A stretch of 56,440 bases of DNA from an uncultured Dehalococcoidales bacterium (GTDB lineage Bacteria; Chloroflexota; Dehalococcoidia; Dehalococcoidales; UBA2162). Every line of letters begins with the position of its first letter. Position 1 is the first letter of the stretch. Location: positions 22,243 to 78,682 of the forward strand of contig CAZCMK010000001.1 in the NCBI GenBank assembly GCA_964499775.1, given 5' to 3'. The position numbers were made by a program, and so were the translations under genes. The notes beneath the pieces are model-generated. The model was not told the origin of the DNA. It saw nothing but the letters and a program-made list of their open reading frames with translations, and made no database searches. This document shows positions 19,874 through 26,782 of the stretch, in pieces.

Positions 19874-20800
19874 TTAATATCCGGTGAGATACCGTTGCGC
19901 ATATATTGCGGCGGTTGCACCGTCGCCGGCGGCGGTGATAGCCTGCCGGGCGGAGTCTCCCCTTATATCACCGGCGGCGAATATTCCCGGAACTTCCATC
20001 TCCATTCTTTCATTGGTGATGACATGCCCAACCGGGTCCAGAGTTACGATGCCTTTAAGGTATTCGGTATCCGGCTGAAAACCGATGGATACGAAAACTC
20101 CGCCTATCTCCAGGGTCGATTTCTCTCCCGTTTTCACGTTATTGAGCTTCAGACTCTTCACCAGGGTATCACCTTCCATCGAATCGACGGTGGTATCCCA
20201 CAGGATTTCTATTTTAGGTTCGGCGAACGCTCTCTCCTGCAGGATAGCAGTGGCTCGAAGCTGGTCGCGCCGGTGTATCACCACCACTTTCGAGGCAAAC
20301 TCAGCCAGGTGCAGGGCTTCAGTAATGGCGGCGTCGCTGCCGCCGACCACCGCTACAGGTTTGTCCGCAAAGAGCGGGGCATCGCAGGTGGCACAGTAAG
20401 ATACGCCCTTACCGGTAAACTCTTCTTCTCCGGGAACGCCCAGTGAATTACACTTCGAGCCGCCGGCTATAATCACCGCTTTAGCTTTGAAATCTCCCTC
20501 GGTGGTCTTTACAGCTTTAATATTGCCCTCAAGCTCGATACCGGTAGCCTCGGCGGTCAGCGTTTCCAGTCCGAACTTAGTCGCCTGCTGGTGGATTAGC
20601 TGCCCGAGTTCGAAGCCGTCGATGCCTTCCGTAAAACCGGGGAAGTTTTCTATAAGGTCGGTGTTGTTTATCTGCCCGCCGGGCAGCCCTTTTTACAGGA
20701 GTAAGGTGCTAAGCCTTGCCCTTGCCGTGTAAAGTCCCGCGGTGAGCCCGGCGGTGCCTCCTCCGATGATAATTACGTCGTAATCATTCCTGTCTGTCAC
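19874..20800 (-). pseudogene. trxB: thioredoxin-disulfide reductase interrupted by an in-frame TAA at codon 36
   Basis: A continuous frame runs from GTG 20800: [38 protein letters not shown](20693-20695)-KGLPGGQINNTDLIENFPGF...CATCDA... to the stop at 19874. Orthologues normally have Glu (GAA) at that position. The track shows only the 3-prime 200 codons. Confidence 0.8.
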
Positions 20801-20802
20801 TT

Positions 20803-21136
20803 TTATACCCCGGTCTCTATTTGAACCTCAATAATATCCAGTAGCTGTCGGATATCGAACTGCCCTGAAATCCTGAGCCGACCGTTCAGGAGTAATAGAG
20901 GTAACGACAGGTTTTTTACTTTTTATTTCCTCATTCCATTTCAGTACATCACTATCGGTCGTGTCTCTGGTAAGGTCGAGGTAGGTCAGTTGTATATCTC
21001 TATCGAACCTCTCGTTGATTTGCTTTCTCGCCTGGTCCAGCGCCTGCAGCGAGGACCAGTTCGTCCCGCAGGACGCGTCGCAATCCTGTCTTAACGGGTC
21101 GTTCAATATCGTGACCCGAATAGCATTATTATCCAA
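20803..21136 (-). pseudogene. ArsD/YuzD-like thioredoxin-fold small protein with a +1 frameshift in an A6 run
   Basis: Frame 0 gives ...DPLRQDCDASCGTNW...KWNEEIKSKK and then an implausible tail. The +1 frame after AAAAAA (complement of 20912-20917) gives [35 protein letters not shown], ending 2 nt before the trxB GTG. LPLLLL(D/N)G is the conserved C-terminal strand in ArsD-like folds. Confidence 0.6.
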
Positions 21137-21455
21137 TTACCGACTCCAGGGTTTTCTGAAGTTCCGCTTTAGGTCTGGCACCAACTACATTCGAAACGGG
21201 TTCTCCGTTCTTAAAGATAAGAAGGGTGGGAATACTCATTATGCCGTAGGTGGCTGCAATCTTGGGGTTCTGGTCCACATCCACCTTGAAGAAATTGACC
21301 TTGCCGTCGTATTCTTCAGCAAGCTCATCGACTATCGGGGCGACTATCAGGCACGGCTTGCACCAGATTGCCCAGAAATCCACCATTACCGGCTTATCAG
21401 CCTTAATTACCATTTCCTCGAATTTTGCTTCATCTACCGGTACGGGTTTACTCAT
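21129..21455 (-). CDS. trxA: thioredoxin (active site WCKPC)
   Basis: 108 aa. VDFWAIWCKPCLIVAP and MSIPTLLIFKNGE motifs. Confidence 0.9.
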   Translation of the reverse strand: MSKPVPVDEAKFEEMVIKADKPVMVDFWAIWCKPCLIVAPIVDELAEEYDGKVNFFKVDVDQNPKIAATYGIMSIPTLLIFKNGEPVSNVVGARPKAELQKTLESVIG

Positions 21456-22443
21456 AACTTTCCTCCTTGATTTTTTGTTCTATGCTTCTTTCTGCGGTCC
21501 GCCTGGCGAGACCGATTGCGTTCATGATTGCTTTGGCGCGGCTCCGACCGTGGGCTATTATGATATTACCGTTCACTCCCAGGAGGCAGGAACCCCCGGT
21601 CTCACTAAAGTCCAATCTTTTCGCCCACGAGTCCATACCTATACCCCGGCGCATAGCCCAGGATGGGAGGCTATACGCTTTTGAAAATGACTGCCCTGCC
21701 TGACCGAGCGAAGCCAGCCAGGTGGCACTCATACCCTCCAGGATTTTGAGTACTATATTGCCGGTAAAACCATCGGTAACGACCACGTTCGACTTTCCCG
21801 CCGTAACGTCCTGCCCTTCTACATTGCCGATGAAGTTAAGGGAGCTCTGTTTCAGCAGTTGATGCGCCTCCTGGGTAAGACGGTTCCCCTTTTTATCCTC
21901 CTCGCCGTTGTTGAGCAGACCGACAACAGGAGACTCGATATCAAAAATCCCGCTGATATAGGTCGAGCCAAGCCGACCGAACTGTAAGAGGTGATTAGGA
22001 CGGCAGTCAGCGTTGGCACCGGCATCGACAAGCAGCACAGGGGCTTCGGAGTTTATACTTATCAGGCTTCCTATTGCGGGACGTTCGATGCCTTCAATCT
22101 TACCCAGGTTTACCAGGGCTGAAAACAGCACCGCTCCCGTGTTACCCGCCGAGACGAAAGCGGAGGCTGTTCCGTCTTTTACCAGATTGGTACCTACCAC
22201 TATCGAAGACTCGGGTTTGCTGCGTATCGCCTCAATTGGGGATTCGTGAGGGTCTATAATCTGGCTGGCGTCGATTATTTTCATATTGAGTTTTGCCACG
22301 TTGCGCCCTGCCAGAATAGAGAGTATCTCCTTCCTGCCGACAAGTGCAATTTCCACTTCCCATTCGCGGGCCGCCTTTATGGCTCCCTTCACTATCTCAT
22401 GGGGAGCATATTCCCCGCCGGCAGCATCAACGGCAATTATCAT
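21448..22443 (-). CDS. plsX: phosphate acyltransferase PlsX
   Basis: 331 aa. MIIAVDAAGGEYAP start and the LLNNGEE, FIGNVEG and GFTGN motifs. Confidence 0.9.
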   Translation of the reverse strand: MIIAVDAAGGEYAPHEIVKGAIKAAREWEVEIALVGRKEILSILAGRNVAKLNMKIIDASQIIDPHESPIEAIRSKPESSIVVGTNLVKDGTASAFVSAGNTGAVLFSALVNLGKIEGIERPAIGSLISINSEAPVLLVDAGANADCRPNHLLQFGRLGSTYISGIFDIESPVVGLLNNGEEDKKGNRLTQEAHQLLKQSSLNFIGNVEGQDVTAGKSNVVVTDGFTGNIVLKILEGMSATWLASLGQAGQSFSKAYSLPSWAMRRGIGMDSWAKRLDFSETGGSCLLGVNGNIIIAHGRSRAKAIMNAIGLARRTAERSIEQKIKEESYE

Positions 22444-23411
22444 TTAGCCTCCTCGGTCAATACTCTTTCCCACAGGTCACAGCGTCCACCCCAGCGGGCA
22501 AGGACACGCCCGTTAGTCGATATCTGGGCAATCTCACACCGATTGGGGCATCTTTTACACTCGAATGTAGAGGTATGATACTCCATCTCGGTTACTCCGA
22601 AGCCGCTGAATTTGCTCTGCCTGTTATTTCCCATCTCTTCATGCACAAGCAGGGCTGCCCCGATAGCCCCCATAACCTCATGGCCGGGAGGTACGATAAC
22701 CTCGGTCTCAAGCTCTTCTTCAAACGCTTTTATAATAGCCCTGTTGAAAGCGACCCCTCCCTGGAAAACAACCGGAGTTTTCAACTCTTTACCGAGACCG
22801 ACGTTGTTCAGGTAGTTGCGCACCAGCGCCTGGCATAGCCCGTACAATATATCCTCTGTACTGTGTCCCATTTGCTGCTTATGAACCATATCCGATTCAG
22901 CAAAAACAGTGCACCGCCCGGCGATACGTACCGGATTGCGGCTATCCATCGCTCTCCGGCTGAATTCATCCATGCTCATGTTGAGTCGCAAAGCCTGGTG
23001 GTCGAGGAAACTGCCGGTGCCGGCAGCGCATACGGTATTCATTCCGAAATCGGTTACTATTCCGTCTCTAATTATAATGATTTTACTGTCCTGCCCGCCT
23101 ATCTCTATCACTGTTTGCACCTGAGGCATATAAGCTAAAGCGGCGGTGGCATGGCTGGTAATCTCGTTTTTCACGAGGTCAGCGCCGACAATAATACCGG
23201 CGAGATAACGGGCGGAGCCGGTGGTAGCCACGCCGCATATTTCAATATCTTCAGGTAACATTTCTTTAATCTCTAAAAGGCCCTGCTGCACCATCTCGAT
23301 AGGTTTGCCCCGGGTCAGTAAATAGACACGGGCGATAACCGTGTCTTCTGCGTCCAAAGCCGCCAGCTTGGTGGTTACCGAACCCACGTCAATTCCCAGA
23401 TAGGCTTCCAT
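22440..23411 (-). CDS. BcrAD/BadFG-family ATPase (2-hydroxyacyl-CoA dehydratase activator-like, archerase)
   Basis: 323 aa. GIDVGSVTTK, IGGQDSK, VCAAGTGSF and GRCTVFAESD (cluster-bridging Cys positions), plus a C-terminal Cys-rich tail ECKRCPNRC...GGRC. Confidence 0.85.
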   Translation of the reverse strand: MEAYLGIDVGSVTTKLAALDAEDTVIARVYLLTRGKPIEMVQQGLLEIKEMLPEDIEICGVATTGSARYLAGIIVGADLVKNEITSHATAALAYMPQVQTVIEIGGQDSKIIIIRDGIVTDFGMNTVCAAGTGSFLDHQALRLNMSMDEFSRRAMDSRNPVRIAGRCTVFAESDMVHKQQMGHSTEDILYGLCQALVRNYLNNVGLGKELKTPVVFQGGVAFNRAIIKAFEEELETEVIVPPGHEVMGAIGAALLVHEEMGNNRQSKFSGFGVTEMEYHTSTFECKRCPNRCEIAQISTNGRVLARWGGRCDLWERVLTEEAK

Positions 23412-23420
23412 CGATACTCC

Positions 23421-24521
23421 TTATACGGCTATTTTTAGCCGGCTTCCGTTACCTGCCCGTCTTTTATGCTTGAGCAGGTCTACAAACGCTTCCAGTCTCG
23501 TCAATACGCCCGTTTTGGTCATCTGTTCGTCACAGATAATGGTCAGTACGGGGATATTCTCCCTGGTGGTGGGCATTATATTCTGGGCGATTATCTCCGG
23601 CATGCAGGTAAACGGGGCAAGATGGACAATCCCGTCATACTCATTACTATGCAGGACCTTTTCTCCGATGGACTCCCAGCCATCGCCGCCGATATCCCGT
23701 TTGAGATACGGCAGGGCTGCCCTGTGTATCCTGTCTTTTTCATTAATGCCAAGAGGATTAAGGAACAGGCTGAACTTGGTCCATTCCGATAGAAACGTCG
23801 TCCTCCTTACCTCCACTCCCAGCTTACCCAGTTCGCTTTCAATATCGTAATTAGAAAACGGCTCCAGCACTACATAGAACTCCCCGGTAATACCGACCAC
23901 AAGCGGTCTTGCGTCCGGGTCTTTCTCAACGTTATTCAATCGCTCGATGTAGCCCGTCTGCACTTCCTTCAGGGTACGACTATCATCGGCTTTATCTATG
24001 GCGTCCAGAGCCTCTTTGAATATGCGGTTAGCCGTCCCCTTCTCAATCTCCACCGCCCGCACCTTCTGTACCAATCGCTCTATCCTGTCCATAGCGTTCA
24101 TTTTTTTCTGGCAAAAAGTGTATACCGATATAATCTTATACCAGGATGCGTTGTTTGCCAGACGTTTTATTATTTTCATCAGCCCCAGCAATTTCTGCTC
24201 GGAAACACCCATCTGAATCATTTCGATATTATACCCGAGGTCTTTAAGTATCTTATCCTGTGTTTTGGCATAGTACCCCAGGCGGCAGGTGCCGTAGCTG
24301 CCGGGCATGACAAGGGTATCGGCTCCAAGCTCGGCGATTTCGATAAAATTACCCAGTGTCAGTTTAAAGGGTATGCACAGACCTTCCGGAGAGTATTTCA
24401 CCCCGAGAGACAGGGTTCGCCGGGTATTGGGCGGCGGCGTGACGTAGTCCACATCGAGCTTTTTAAATAACGCTTTCAGAGGTATGTATAAATTTCCTAT
24501 ATGCGGTATTCCTATACGCAT
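23421..24521 (-). CDS. acyl-CoA dehydratase activase-related protein (DUF2229-type), subunit 2
   Basis: 366 aa. MRIGIPHIGN..., GLCIPFKLTLGN and LAPFTCMPE segments. Paralogous to the upstream gene. Confidence 0.65.
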   Translation of the reverse strand: MRIGIPHIGNLYIPLKALFKKLDVDYVTPPPNTRRTLSLGVKYSPEGLCIPFKLTLGNFIEIAELGADTLVMPGSYGTCRLGYYAKTQDKILKDLGYNIEMIQMGVSEQKLLGLMKIIKRLANNASWYKIISVYTFCQKKMNAMDRIERLVQKVRAVEIEKGTANRIFKEALDAIDKADDSRTLKEVQTGYIERLNNVEKDPDARPLVVGITGEFYVVLEPFSNYDIESELGKLGVEVRRTTFLSEWTKFSLFLNPLGINEKDRIHRAALPYLKRDIGGDGWESIGEKVLHSNEYDGIVHLAPFTCMPEIIAQNIMPTTRENIPVLTIICDEQMTKTGVLTRLEAFVDLLKHKRRAGNGSRLKIAV

Positions 24522-25519
24522 ACTGCCCGGTCTTTCTTTTTTCTCCTGTATATCATATCGGTAAAGGCTTCAAGCCGGGTAACAACGCCGGCTTCAGCGG
24601 TATGCTCCTCCAGCGTGAGACACATAAACGGGGTAGACCCCAGCCCTACCGAATGCCGCCGTACCATATCCATCATAAGAGAATCGGGGCCGCAACCAAA
24701 AGCCATTATACCAATAACACCATCGGCACCGCTTTGCAAATAGTGCCCCCCGGCGCCGACAACTTCTTCTTCATATGTCCAGTAAGCTCCTCCGGTTATT
24801 TCTGCTATGGCGGATTTCAGCTCGGGAGTGGCGACCATCTCCGGCGTTACTATCCTGTTACCGGACTGCTCCAGCCGGCGGATAAGACGGTGGTTTATAT
24901 ATTCATCGTAGATGAGGTAGGGGTGGCCTATAAGGGCGACGGTGCCCTTTACCCGAGCCGGTCCGGTACGCGTAACTTCCGGTTCTTTCTCCGCCGTCCC
25001 GTACATTCCGGCTAACGCTTCGGGCGGGGTAAGTTTGCTGCCAGACATCAACTCACGGTAATCCAGGTACGCCTGCCAGGCTGCCAGACCTGCCTGCCTG
25101 ACCTTAAAAGGGTTCCAGTTAATGCTCCGCCCCATTGCGTATATGCTCTGGTAAAGTCTGCTCTTTCCTTCATTGACATCGATATCAACCTCCAGCAGCG
25201 GAGGGGCTTCGGGAATGACCGCTTTTGTCATATCGGGCAATCCTAGGAACTTGGAGCAGTTATAGACCTTTTTTTCCACGCTGCGCACAGCCGGAATGAA
25301 TATACGGTCGCACTTATCCACCAGAGAGAGGACATGGCCCAGAAAAACCTTTACCGGCAGGCAGGTATCGGCGACCACGCGTGCAGAACCCTCGGCTAGC
25401 ATAGCCTGGGTGGTCGGCGGCGAGACTACTACCTCCGCCCCCAGTTCTTCAAAGAAGGTTTTCCACGCGGGGTAGTACTGGTAGTAGAGTAACGCTCTGG
25501 GAATGCCTACCCTCATCAT
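24512..25519 (-). CDS. acyl-CoA dehydratase activase-related protein (DUF2229-type), subunit 1
   Basis: 335 aa. MMRVGIPRALLYYQYYP, DTCLPVKVFLGH and IMAFGCGPDS segments. 10-nt overlap with the next gene. Confidence 0.65.
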   Translation of the reverse strand: MMRVGIPRALLYYQYYPAWKTFFEELGAEVVVSPPTTQAMLAEGSARVVADTCLPVKVFLGHVLSLVDKCDRIFIPAVRSVEKKVYNCSKFLGLPDMTKAVIPEAPPLLEVDIDVNEGKSRLYQSIYAMGRSINWNPFKVRQAGLAAWQAYLDYRELMSGSKLTPPEALAGMYGTAEKEPEVTRTGPARVKGTVALIGHPYLIYDEYINHRLIRRLEQSGNRIVTPEMVATPELKSAIAEITGGAYWTYEEEVVGAGGHYLQSGADGVIGIMAFGCGPDSLMMDMVRRHSVGLGSTPFMCLTLEEHTAEAGVVTRLEAFTDMIYRRKKKDRAVCV

Positions 25520-25523
25520 ATTC

Positions 25524-25559
25524 CTGAAAATGCCGGAACATGCTAAAGCACCGTTCCGG
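25524..25559 (-). terminator. putative intrinsic terminator after the M20 peptidase gene
   Basis: On the minus strand, CCGGAAC-13 nt-GTTCCGG is followed by CATTTTC. It lies 50 nt downstream of the stop at 25610. Confidence 0.45.
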
Positions 25560-25609
25560 TTTATTACTCCTCTCGTACACTCGTTACAGCCAGCCGTATG
25601 AATAGTCTT

Positions 25610-26782
25610 TTACTGCCGGCTGAGAAATTCTTCTTTTATCTTTTCCCGTATCCCTGAATCCGCCAGCACATCAACCACCGTCATCGCCATAGCCTTTGCG
25701 GCATCAAGCATTCCTCTAATGCCCCTCTCAGAGGCGGCAGCGGCAGCGAATTCGGGAGAATGGACCTGTACCTCTTTATCGGCTATAGCTACAAAAGCAT
25801 GAATAGCGGGTACGAGCTGACTTACATTTCCCATGTCGGTACTGGCGTATGCCTGTCCGGCGCTGTCAACCGAGATATTACGTCCCATTGACTCCATATT
25901 GGCGGCATATAAACCTGCCAGTGTCAGGTTATTGCGCATCGGCGCGTAACATACATCATCCCACTTATATTCAAGTCGGGCGCCGGTAGCAGTGGCAGCC
26001 CCGACAAAGCAGTCCAGGACCTTTTCCTTCAATACGCTCAGGTAATCCATATCGGCAGCCCTGACTATAAAATTCCCGGCAGTATAAGCCGGGACAATAT
26101 TGGCCGCTCCTCCGCCGCTGGTAATAATCCCGTGAATGCGTGCCGTGCTTTTAATGTGCTGACGCAGCGAGTTGATGGCAGCAAAGGAAAGGAGTATTGC
26201 CTCCAGGGCATTAATACCCTGTTCCGGTCCGGCGGCGGCATGTGCTGCTTTTCCGAAGAACTCGATATCGAGGGTCTGGCAGGCGAGTGCTTCGGTGGTG
26301 GCATCATCGCTCGTCCCGGGGTGTATCATCATAGCCATATCCAGACCGTCGAAGGCTCCTCTTTCCGCCATTAATATTTTACCGCCGTATAGTTCTTCTG
26401 CCGGCGTGCCGATAACGAGAATGGTGCCGCCAAGCTGGTCGACGGCACTTCTGGAAGCAATTCCGGCTCCGACGGCGCTGGTAGCTATGATATTATGCCC
26501 GCAGGCATGACCCAACTCAGGCAACGCATCATACTCGGCGAGAATAGCTATAACCGGTTTCCCTGTGCCGTAGCTTGCCTTAAAAGAAGTTTTTAGCTGG
26601 CAGATACCTTTTCCGATAGTGAAGCTGTTTTTTTCAAGGTATTCCGTCAACCAGCCGGCTGCCTTTACCTCATCGAAACCAAGCTCGGGATTGGAGTGGA
26701 TTTTCAGGCAGAGTTCGGCTAACTCATCCCGTCTTGTTTCTATTTCGTTTTGAATCGATTCTTTTAATCTTTTAATATCCAT
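25610..26782 (-). CDS. M20 family metallopeptidase / amidohydrolase (AbgB-like)
   Basis: 390 aa. GHACGHN metal-binding motif and PAEE motif, with the dimerisation-domain arrangement typical of M20D. Confidence 0.8.
   Translation of the reverse strand: MDIKRLKESIQNEIETRRDELAELCLKIHSNPELGFDEVKAAGWLTEYLEKNSFTIGKGICQLKTSFKASYGTGKPVIAILAEYDALPELGHACGHNIIATSAVGAGIASRSAVDQLGGTILVIGTPAEELYGGKILMAERGAFDGLDMAMMIHPGTSDDATTEALACQTLDIEFFGKAAHAAAGPEQGINALEAILLSFAAINSLRQHIKSTARIHGIITSGGGAANIVPAYTAGNFIVRAADMDYLSVLKEKVLDCFVGAATATGARLEYKWDDVCYAPMRNNLTLAGLYAANMESMGRNISVDSAGQAYASTDMGNVSQLVPAIHAFVAIADKEVQVHSPEFAAAAASERGIRGMLDAAKAMAMTVVDVLADSGIREKIKEEFLSRQ

Follow-up and report, generated by a model that had tools for sequence, protein, structure and literature searches.

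Why would the genes of a putative ATP-driven iron-sulfur reductase stand in one row with plsX and a thioredoxin system? The question is raised by positions 19874 to 25519 of the window (here always the whole analyzed stretch of 56,440 nucleotides, from contig CAZCMK010000001.1 of assembly GCA_964499775.1), which comes from the metagenome-assembled draft genome of a salt-marsh Dehalococcoidales bacterium (2.0 Mb, 118 contigs, 89% completeness). Read along the minus strand, the list of open reading frames (ORFs) gives two paralogous DUF2229 proteins (D1 and D2), an HgdC/BcrAD-type ATPase (the activase; together with D1 and D2, the trio), plsX, the thioredoxin gene trx, a DUF1462/YuzD-like gene and trxB. 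The reading that we favor, at a rough probability of 55%, is that this row encodes an ATP-driven lipid-ester reductase that would be co-expressed with plsX. An earlier account made from the letters alone (the sequence-only reading) had suggested a reductive step tied to acyl-phosphate or lipid metabolism, and the tie to lipids is what we also regard as the best reading. The six junctions of the row are, in order, a 10-nt overlap, a 9-nt gap, overlaps of 4, 8 and 8 nt and a 2-nt gap; these, together with the ORF coordinates and the strand given in that account, agree with the ORF list. The layout supports a tightly packed row that is probably co-transcribed, as had been proposed, and a signal scan found no promoter-like or terminator-like matches inside the row above shuffled expectation.

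The identity of the trio is given by its domains, folds and cysteines. D1 (24512-25519, minus strand, 335 residues) matches PF09989 with an E-value of 1.2e-51 and D2 (23421-24521, minus strand, 366 residues) with 6.3e-13, and both exceed the family cut-off of 29.4 bits; an HGD-D tail in D1 is seen in Pfam under the cut-off (E = 0.0019). The invariant cysteines are C53, C88 and C276 in D1 and C49, C79 and C306 in D2. The structural model of D1 (predicted local distance difference test, pLDDT = 93.7) matches HadC, DCCP, BzdNO and BcrB/C at a Foldseek probability of 1.0, the D2 model (pLDDT = 81.7) matches DCCP and HadC at the same probability, and the entries 3o3n_B, 7yyl, 6eno, 8s02 and 9g87 are matched by both at 1.0, with template modeling (TM) scores of 0.5-0.59. 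As single chains the two models therefore share the catalytic-subunit fold of HgdAB/BcrBC, the enzymes with which the sequence-only reading had proposed to compare them. At the sequence level, a profile of D1 homologs matches the C-termini of DCCP, HadC and BzdN at E-values from 1.8e-6 to 0.6; D1 and D2 sit in PF09989 and not in PF06050, and their match to PF06050-type enzymes covers the last ~65 residues only. The activase (22440-23411, minus strand, 323 residues; TIGR00241, E = 1.6e-55) finds MbdQ, HgdC (1hux), HadI (4eht) and DCCP-R among PDB sequences, with E-values of 1e-25 to 1e-37. Both of the cluster-ligand cysteine contexts pointed out from the letters are present, at C128 and C167, and the two residues are invariant among 56 orthologs, as is a C-terminal four-cysteine motif (C285/C288/C292/C311).

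By sequence, then, the trio belongs, as a putative enzyme of three subunits, to the superfamily of ATP-driven, low-potential iron-sulfur reductases and dehydratases that comprises the benzoyl-CoA reductases (BCR), the 2-hydroxyacyl-CoA dehydratases (HAD) and DCCP. It shares the catalytic fold, the activase sequence and the cysteine pair of the bridging cluster with HadBC/HadI, HgdAB/HgdC, BcrABCD, BzdNOPQ, MbdONPQ and DCCP/DCCP-R; unlike the 2-hydroxyacyl-CoA dehydratases and benzoyl-CoA reductases, it has no CoA-ester pathway genes nearby. In three loci (L020, which is G030:C66, L076 and L078) an extra D2-like paralog, with ~51% identity to D2, lies between D1 and D2 and produces a four-gene module of D1, the extra D2, D2 and the activase. 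Contigs from two salt-marsh runs join window position 23411 to 25671 and thereby omit the 2259 nt that hold D1 and D2; on its shorter side this join is matched by just 23 nt, and it may reflect a co-occurring relative in which an M20 gene adjoins the activase, or chance.

The sequence-only reading described the trio family as having no assigned substrate, a statement that overlooks its characterized fused relatives. DUF2229 is joined to an activase in PlsA/PlsR, the anaerobic plasmalogen synthase, and in Ger, the glycerol ester reductase (PMC9702350, PMC12838417, PMC13159169), and in the literature that we searched lipid ester reduction is the sole function assigned to DUF2229, with no characterized member of the split clade. 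Ger and PlsA are defined by a BBD architecture (PMC13159169, PMC12838417). The enzymes of Thermotoga maritima and Lactococcus lactis have been tested experimentally (PMC13159169, PMC12838417), and both species, used here as control genomes, gave PF09989 matches. Fused proteins of 1376-1393 residues also occur within the taxonomic order of the present genome, and the two that were scanned with Pfam (1376 and 1387 residues) contain two BcrAD_BadFG domains, DUF2229 and an HGD-D tail (BBD...H). The trio is colinear with a continuous part of these proteins, namely the second ATPase domain with its CxxCx3C..C linker followed by the two reduction domains: the activase finds its best match in that ATPase domain, at 39-45% identity, together with the CxxCx3C...C linker, D1 aligns with residues ~660-1010, the first reduction domain, and D2 aligns with residues ~1000-1385, the second reduction domain, which is taken as the PlsR position. 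Because the colinear fused proteins have the BBD architecture, we regard the trio as a split relative of the lipid ester reductases; as judged by these alignments it is a distant relative of PlsA/PlsR and Ger, split, permuted and with a single ATPase. D1-D2 fusion proteins of ~700 residues exist as well, and the 150 nearest representative clusters consist entirely of stand-alone or D1-D2 proteins. NCBIfam models cover the activase domain, but none of them names D1, D2 or the fused proteins. All relatives listed by the homolog search are from Chloroflexota.

In common with PlsA/PlsR, the trio has a BcrAD_BadFG activation module and two DUF2229-type reduction modules, BCR/HAD family membership and, as predicted from its conserved cysteines, oxygen-sensitive [4Fe-4S] clusters. 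In PlsA/PlsR of Clostridium perfringens (CPE1194/1195) the second reduction module is likewise a separate protein, while PlsA is encoded by a single gene in Enterococcus faecalis and Lactococcus cremoris. The fused Dehalococcoidales proteins, alike in architecture, have a cysteine-rich linker behind their second ATPase domain (PMC12838417). The trio differs from PlsA/PlsR in having a single ATPase gene where those enzymes have two ATPase domains fused to each other, so that the "BB" of BBD is absent, and in being laid out as three separate genes, in the order D1, D2, activase, inside a row with plsX and a thioredoxin system. Ger, an alkyl-ether synthase (Tmari_0479 of T. maritima; Desulfatibacillum alkenivorans), shares with the trio PF01869 and PF09989, the domains of its BBD core, as well as small HGD-D pieces, and differs from it in being a single protein with the domain order BBDHDDH (PMC13159169).

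The anaerobic, ATP-dependent conversion of ester to ether by Ger is the model for the mechanism that we propose. The activase would form a homodimer with a [4Fe-4S] cluster bridging the subunits on C128 and C167, and such a homodimer could take the place of the tandem ATPase pair of the fused enzymes. It would receive an electron from ferredoxin or flavodoxin and, upon ATP hydrolysis, inject one electron into a D1/D2 heterodimer in which each subunit would hold one three-cysteine [4Fe-4S] site. The D1/D2 clusters would then reduce the acyl-ester carbonyl of a glycerolipid through a ketyl-type intermediate, and a second electron, protonation and dehydration would yield an alk-1-enyl or alkyl ether; makers of alkyl and alkenyl ethers are not distinguishable from sequence alone (PMC11868695). 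With the only plsX of the cell probably transcribed together with the trio, ether formation would be expressed alongside the first step of phospholipid synthesis. The genes trx, DUF1462 and trxB belong to the housekeeping thioredoxin system, and where two of these genes are broken, as described below, two thioredoxin reductase (TrxR) paralogs elsewhere in the genome would presumably compensate.

The arrangement is not a peculiarity of this genome, an outcome that would have spoken against the sequence-only reading. A D1 homolog was found in 33 of the 41 genomes searched (this one included), most at the level of orthologs and a few distant; within the family, 23 of the 24 other genomes have one. 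About 25 genomes from this family and order retain the row, and wherever an examined locus was of sufficient length, its genes run M20, D1, D2, activase, plsX, trx, (DUF1462), trxB. The first of these genes encodes an M20-family amidohydrolase (25610-26782, minus strand; TIGR01891, E = 8e-66), which falls outside the unit as first delimited. Nearly all relatives have it immediately ahead of D1, and in most of those outside this genus the two are separated by ~10 nt or overlap, against a 90-nt spacer here; since M20 abuts D1 in most relatives, we count eight genes in the conserved cluster. The sequence-only reading had placed the upstream bound at a terminator at 25524-25559. RNA folding does give a minus-strand hairpin there, inside the spacer, with a stem of ~11 bp followed by CAUUUUC, but the terminator scan did not call it and the M20 gene adjoins D1 in most relatives, so that the hairpin is at best a weak terminator or attenuator.

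The frequency with which plsX follows the activase was counted in a class-wide sample of 80 species loci, all from Dehalococcoidia, that were located with a nine-sequence alignment. The gene comes directly after the activase in 27 of the 34 loci whose D1 is at least 52% identical (20/23 at 65% or more, 5/7 at 58-65% and 2/4 at 52-58%), and in none of the 15 loci below 52%. A second kind of lipid neighborhood appeared when the loci were searched with the fabD, fabG and acpP of this genome. A sister clade of 12 loci in the D1 tree is supported by an SH-like approximate likelihood ratio test (SH-aLRT) value of 96; 10 of the 12 have the trio operon divergent from acpP-nusB-fabD-yceD, and one has it divergent from plsX-acpP-fabG. 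In the same tree, plsX after the activase is seen in the crown clade as well as in deep rows. The presence of lipid genes beside the trio in at least two different arrangements strengthens the lipid link, and unrelated housekeeping order alone explains the two arrangements poorly. In two loci of a clade whose trio has no plsX (L113:12038-12616 and L116:12266-12943), the next gene after the activase, in the same orientation, encodes a short-chain dehydrogenase with 31-34% identity to FabG.

The best surviving alternative is that the trio is a BCR/HAD-type radical enzyme acting on a non-lipid substrate and that plsX, trx and trxB stand next to it as inherited gene order in compact genomes, where housekeeping genes without mutual relation would share one operon; we consider this possible, though we would not expect it to be right. 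Several observations weigh against our preferred reading, and some of them suit this alternative. Some genomes have M20, D1, D2, activase and trxB without plsX, and three genomes of the same order that have lost D1 and D2 retain M20, activase, plsX and trxB with the activase intact. Since activase, plsX and trxB stay together without D1/D2 and the trio stays with trxB without plsX, the adjacency is in part inherited gene order, and the M20 amidohydrolase conserved at the head of the cluster, as well as the fact that plsX, trx and trxB are sole canonical copies, fits the same explanation. Nine of the 15 loci below 52% identity show a trio without any lipid neighbor, and stand-alone trios of other lineages lie beside spoVA or spoIIID, PASTA or MFS genes, again without a lipid gene; six loci with distant split trios were examined and plsX was not nearby in any of them. 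D1 and D2 share no more than 25-30% identity with the fused PlsA/Ger-like proteins, and the fused domains form a long-branch outgroup in the D1 tree; the fused side of both comparisons consisted of proteins of the same architecture from the same order. Three genomes (G008, G030 and G040) carry a fused protein in addition to a split D1, and since they hold both, the two forms may not be equivalent. A structure prediction for a complex of D1, D2 and PlsX scored 0.01 versus a mark of 0.32, which lends no support and is no counter-evidence either. From the side of the organisms, Chloroflexota are not listed among the Ger holders of a Black Sea study whose screens started from full-length Ger or PlsA (PMC11868695), and in the literature searched we found no report linking Dehalococcoidia to plasmalogens or Ger-type ether lipids. 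What speaks against a non-lipid enzyme in inherited surroundings is that DUF2229 has no other assigned function in that literature, and that an unrelated gene order would rarely produce both plsX within the operon and a divergent fabD-acpP or plsX-acpP-fabG cluster. The lipid-ester reductase co-expressed with plsX thus remains the reading that we prefer.

A different placement of the same chemistry, in which the trio would act where phospholipid synthesis begins (on PlsX-derived acyl-phosphate, acyl-ACP or lysophosphatidic acid) and not on finished phospholipids, seems unlikely to us. The form given to it in the sequence-only reading is more doubtful still: there the trio reduces acyl-phosphate or an early PlsX-linked intermediate, or PlsX is under redox control, with a dedicated thioredoxin/TrxR pair at its service. 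The 4-nt overlap between the activase gene and plsX, the survival of that adjacency after loss of D1/D2 and the occurrence of trxB directly after the activase in several genomes can be cited for it. The characterized relatives, however, use complete diacyl lipids (PMC9702350), and the copy numbers argue against dedicated partners. PlsX, a phosphate acyltransferase (21448-22443, minus strand; TIGR00182, 319 bits versus a cut-off of 243.4), is the single TIGR00182 copy of the genome, and redox control of it finds no support, as the protein has one invariant cysteine and the complex prediction is of no help. The thioredoxin (21129-21455, minus strand, 108 residues, active site WCKPC; TIGR01068, 129.8 bits) is the only canonical one of the genome (a single match at E <= 1e-15), and the trxB product, a canonical NADPH thioredoxin reductase (19874-20800, minus strand; TIGR01292, 366 bits), is its only TrxR above the equivalog cut-off of 343 bits. 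These only canonical copies make trx and trxB the housekeeping thioredoxin system and speak against a dedicated pair. In five relatives checked the trxB of the cluster is likewise the only TrxR above the cut-off, and two of them, with small genomes, have no other TrxR at all.

The active site of the thioredoxin is WCKPC and not WCGPC, and its middle residue is K, R, A or Q in relatives. The single plsX is accompanied by an unusual multiplicity of matches to the PlsY family (TIGR00023) of acyl-phosphate:glycerol-3-phosphate acyltransferases, five in a 2-Mb genome and two of them above the cut-off, at G000:C2:10779-11402, C4:55954-56493, C21:28155-28682, C9:8002-8529 and C1:17159-17716, the last ~5 kb before the start of the window.

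The proposed seven-gene unit holds in its layout and gene identities, but two of its members are pseudogenes, and both genes are accordingly dispensable here, which is a further point against a dedicated redox system. The DUF1462/YuzD-like thioredoxin-fold gene (20803-21136, minus strand) measures 334 nt, not a multiple of three, and carries one extra A in a run of six at 20912-20917 where relatives have five, so that its N- and C-terminal parts lie in different frames. It is intact, at 105-112 residues, in all 14 carriers among 20 relatives examined. The intact orthologs score 21-27 bits around the 25-bit cut-off of PF07315, the best of them (L014) with 26.8 bits and an E-value of 6e-6, and the frameshifted copy of the window gives no match. 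In trxB, a GAA codon has become an in-frame TAA at 20693-20695 (codon 36), where 20 of 20 relatives examined have an intact gene with Glu (LLxEK); the CATC redox site and the HRRD NADPH motif are both kept. Reassignment of the stop codon was considered and rejected, as TAA also terminates trxB itself. For the TAA there are Logan contigs from four salt-marsh metagenome runs and for the run of six A from three, with no other letter or gap at either site in any of them; since the contigs carry the same letters, the lesions are real in the population and not errors of assembly, and the two genes are recent, real pseudogenes. The notion that frameshift and stop are assembly or sequencing errors, or are bypassed in expression to leave seven functional genes, might appeal to the homopolymer at the frameshift and to the draft state of a metagenome-assembled genome in 118 contigs at 89% completeness, but it is hardly credible against these run contigs, given that rescue would require +1 frameshifting at just six A and that TAA is a normal stop here. 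Two intact TrxR paralogs score just under the cut-off, at G000:C58:7332-8228 (333 bits) and G000:C21:21390-22289 (324 bits); relatives checked have none or one such extra copy, and an extra copy may offset the broken canonical trxB.

Bacterial ether lipids and plasmalogens serve as biomarkers in anoxic sediments, and their producers are poorly known. Dehalococcoidales are very abundant in marine and salt-marsh sediments and, if the preferred reading is true, would become candidate ether-lipid producers, while the enzyme family would gain a minimal, separable form, with two catalytic subunits and one ATPase, that lends itself better to study. The split form may escape published Ger screens that set a minimum for query coverage. 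Should the trio instead act at the entry of phospholipid synthesis, it would be part of a de novo anaerobic ether-lipid pathway in abundant Dehalococcoidia of anoxic sediments, undetected by the published Ger/PlsA screens. The repeated placement beside plsX or fabD-acpP makes the lipid proposal a concrete hypothesis, the idea of dedicated thioredoxin partners is corrected, and a natural loss of canonical trxB is documented in one population. New in this work are the recognition of plsX, trx and trxB as housekeeping genes, the persistence of activase, plsX and trxB where D1/D2 are missing, the proof of both lesions from metagenome contigs and the synteny counts binned by identity.

The genomes without D1 and D2 are two complete ones (~1.5 Mb) and one draft (~1.1 Mb). 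Their loci (L130 of G031, L131 of G027 and L132 of G033) contain no DUF2229 gene, the cluster cysteines of the activase are retained, and G031 and G033 have no other BcrAD-type ATPase. The genomes lacking D1/D2 have a single HGD-D family protein, of ~340 residues, which is encoded elsewhere, beside gap and eno (L134 and L135); it is not a simple replacement for D1/D2, as G028 has it together with the trio and G000 lacks it. Two complete bacterial genomes of the order also encode, next to glyceraldehyde-3-phosphate dehydrogenase, a protein of the tubulin/FtsZ family (L134:1973-3148 and L135:2032-3201, both on the minus strand) whose C-terminal domain (PF21011, E ~1e-16) is of the type found in CetZ, a protein regarded as archaeal.

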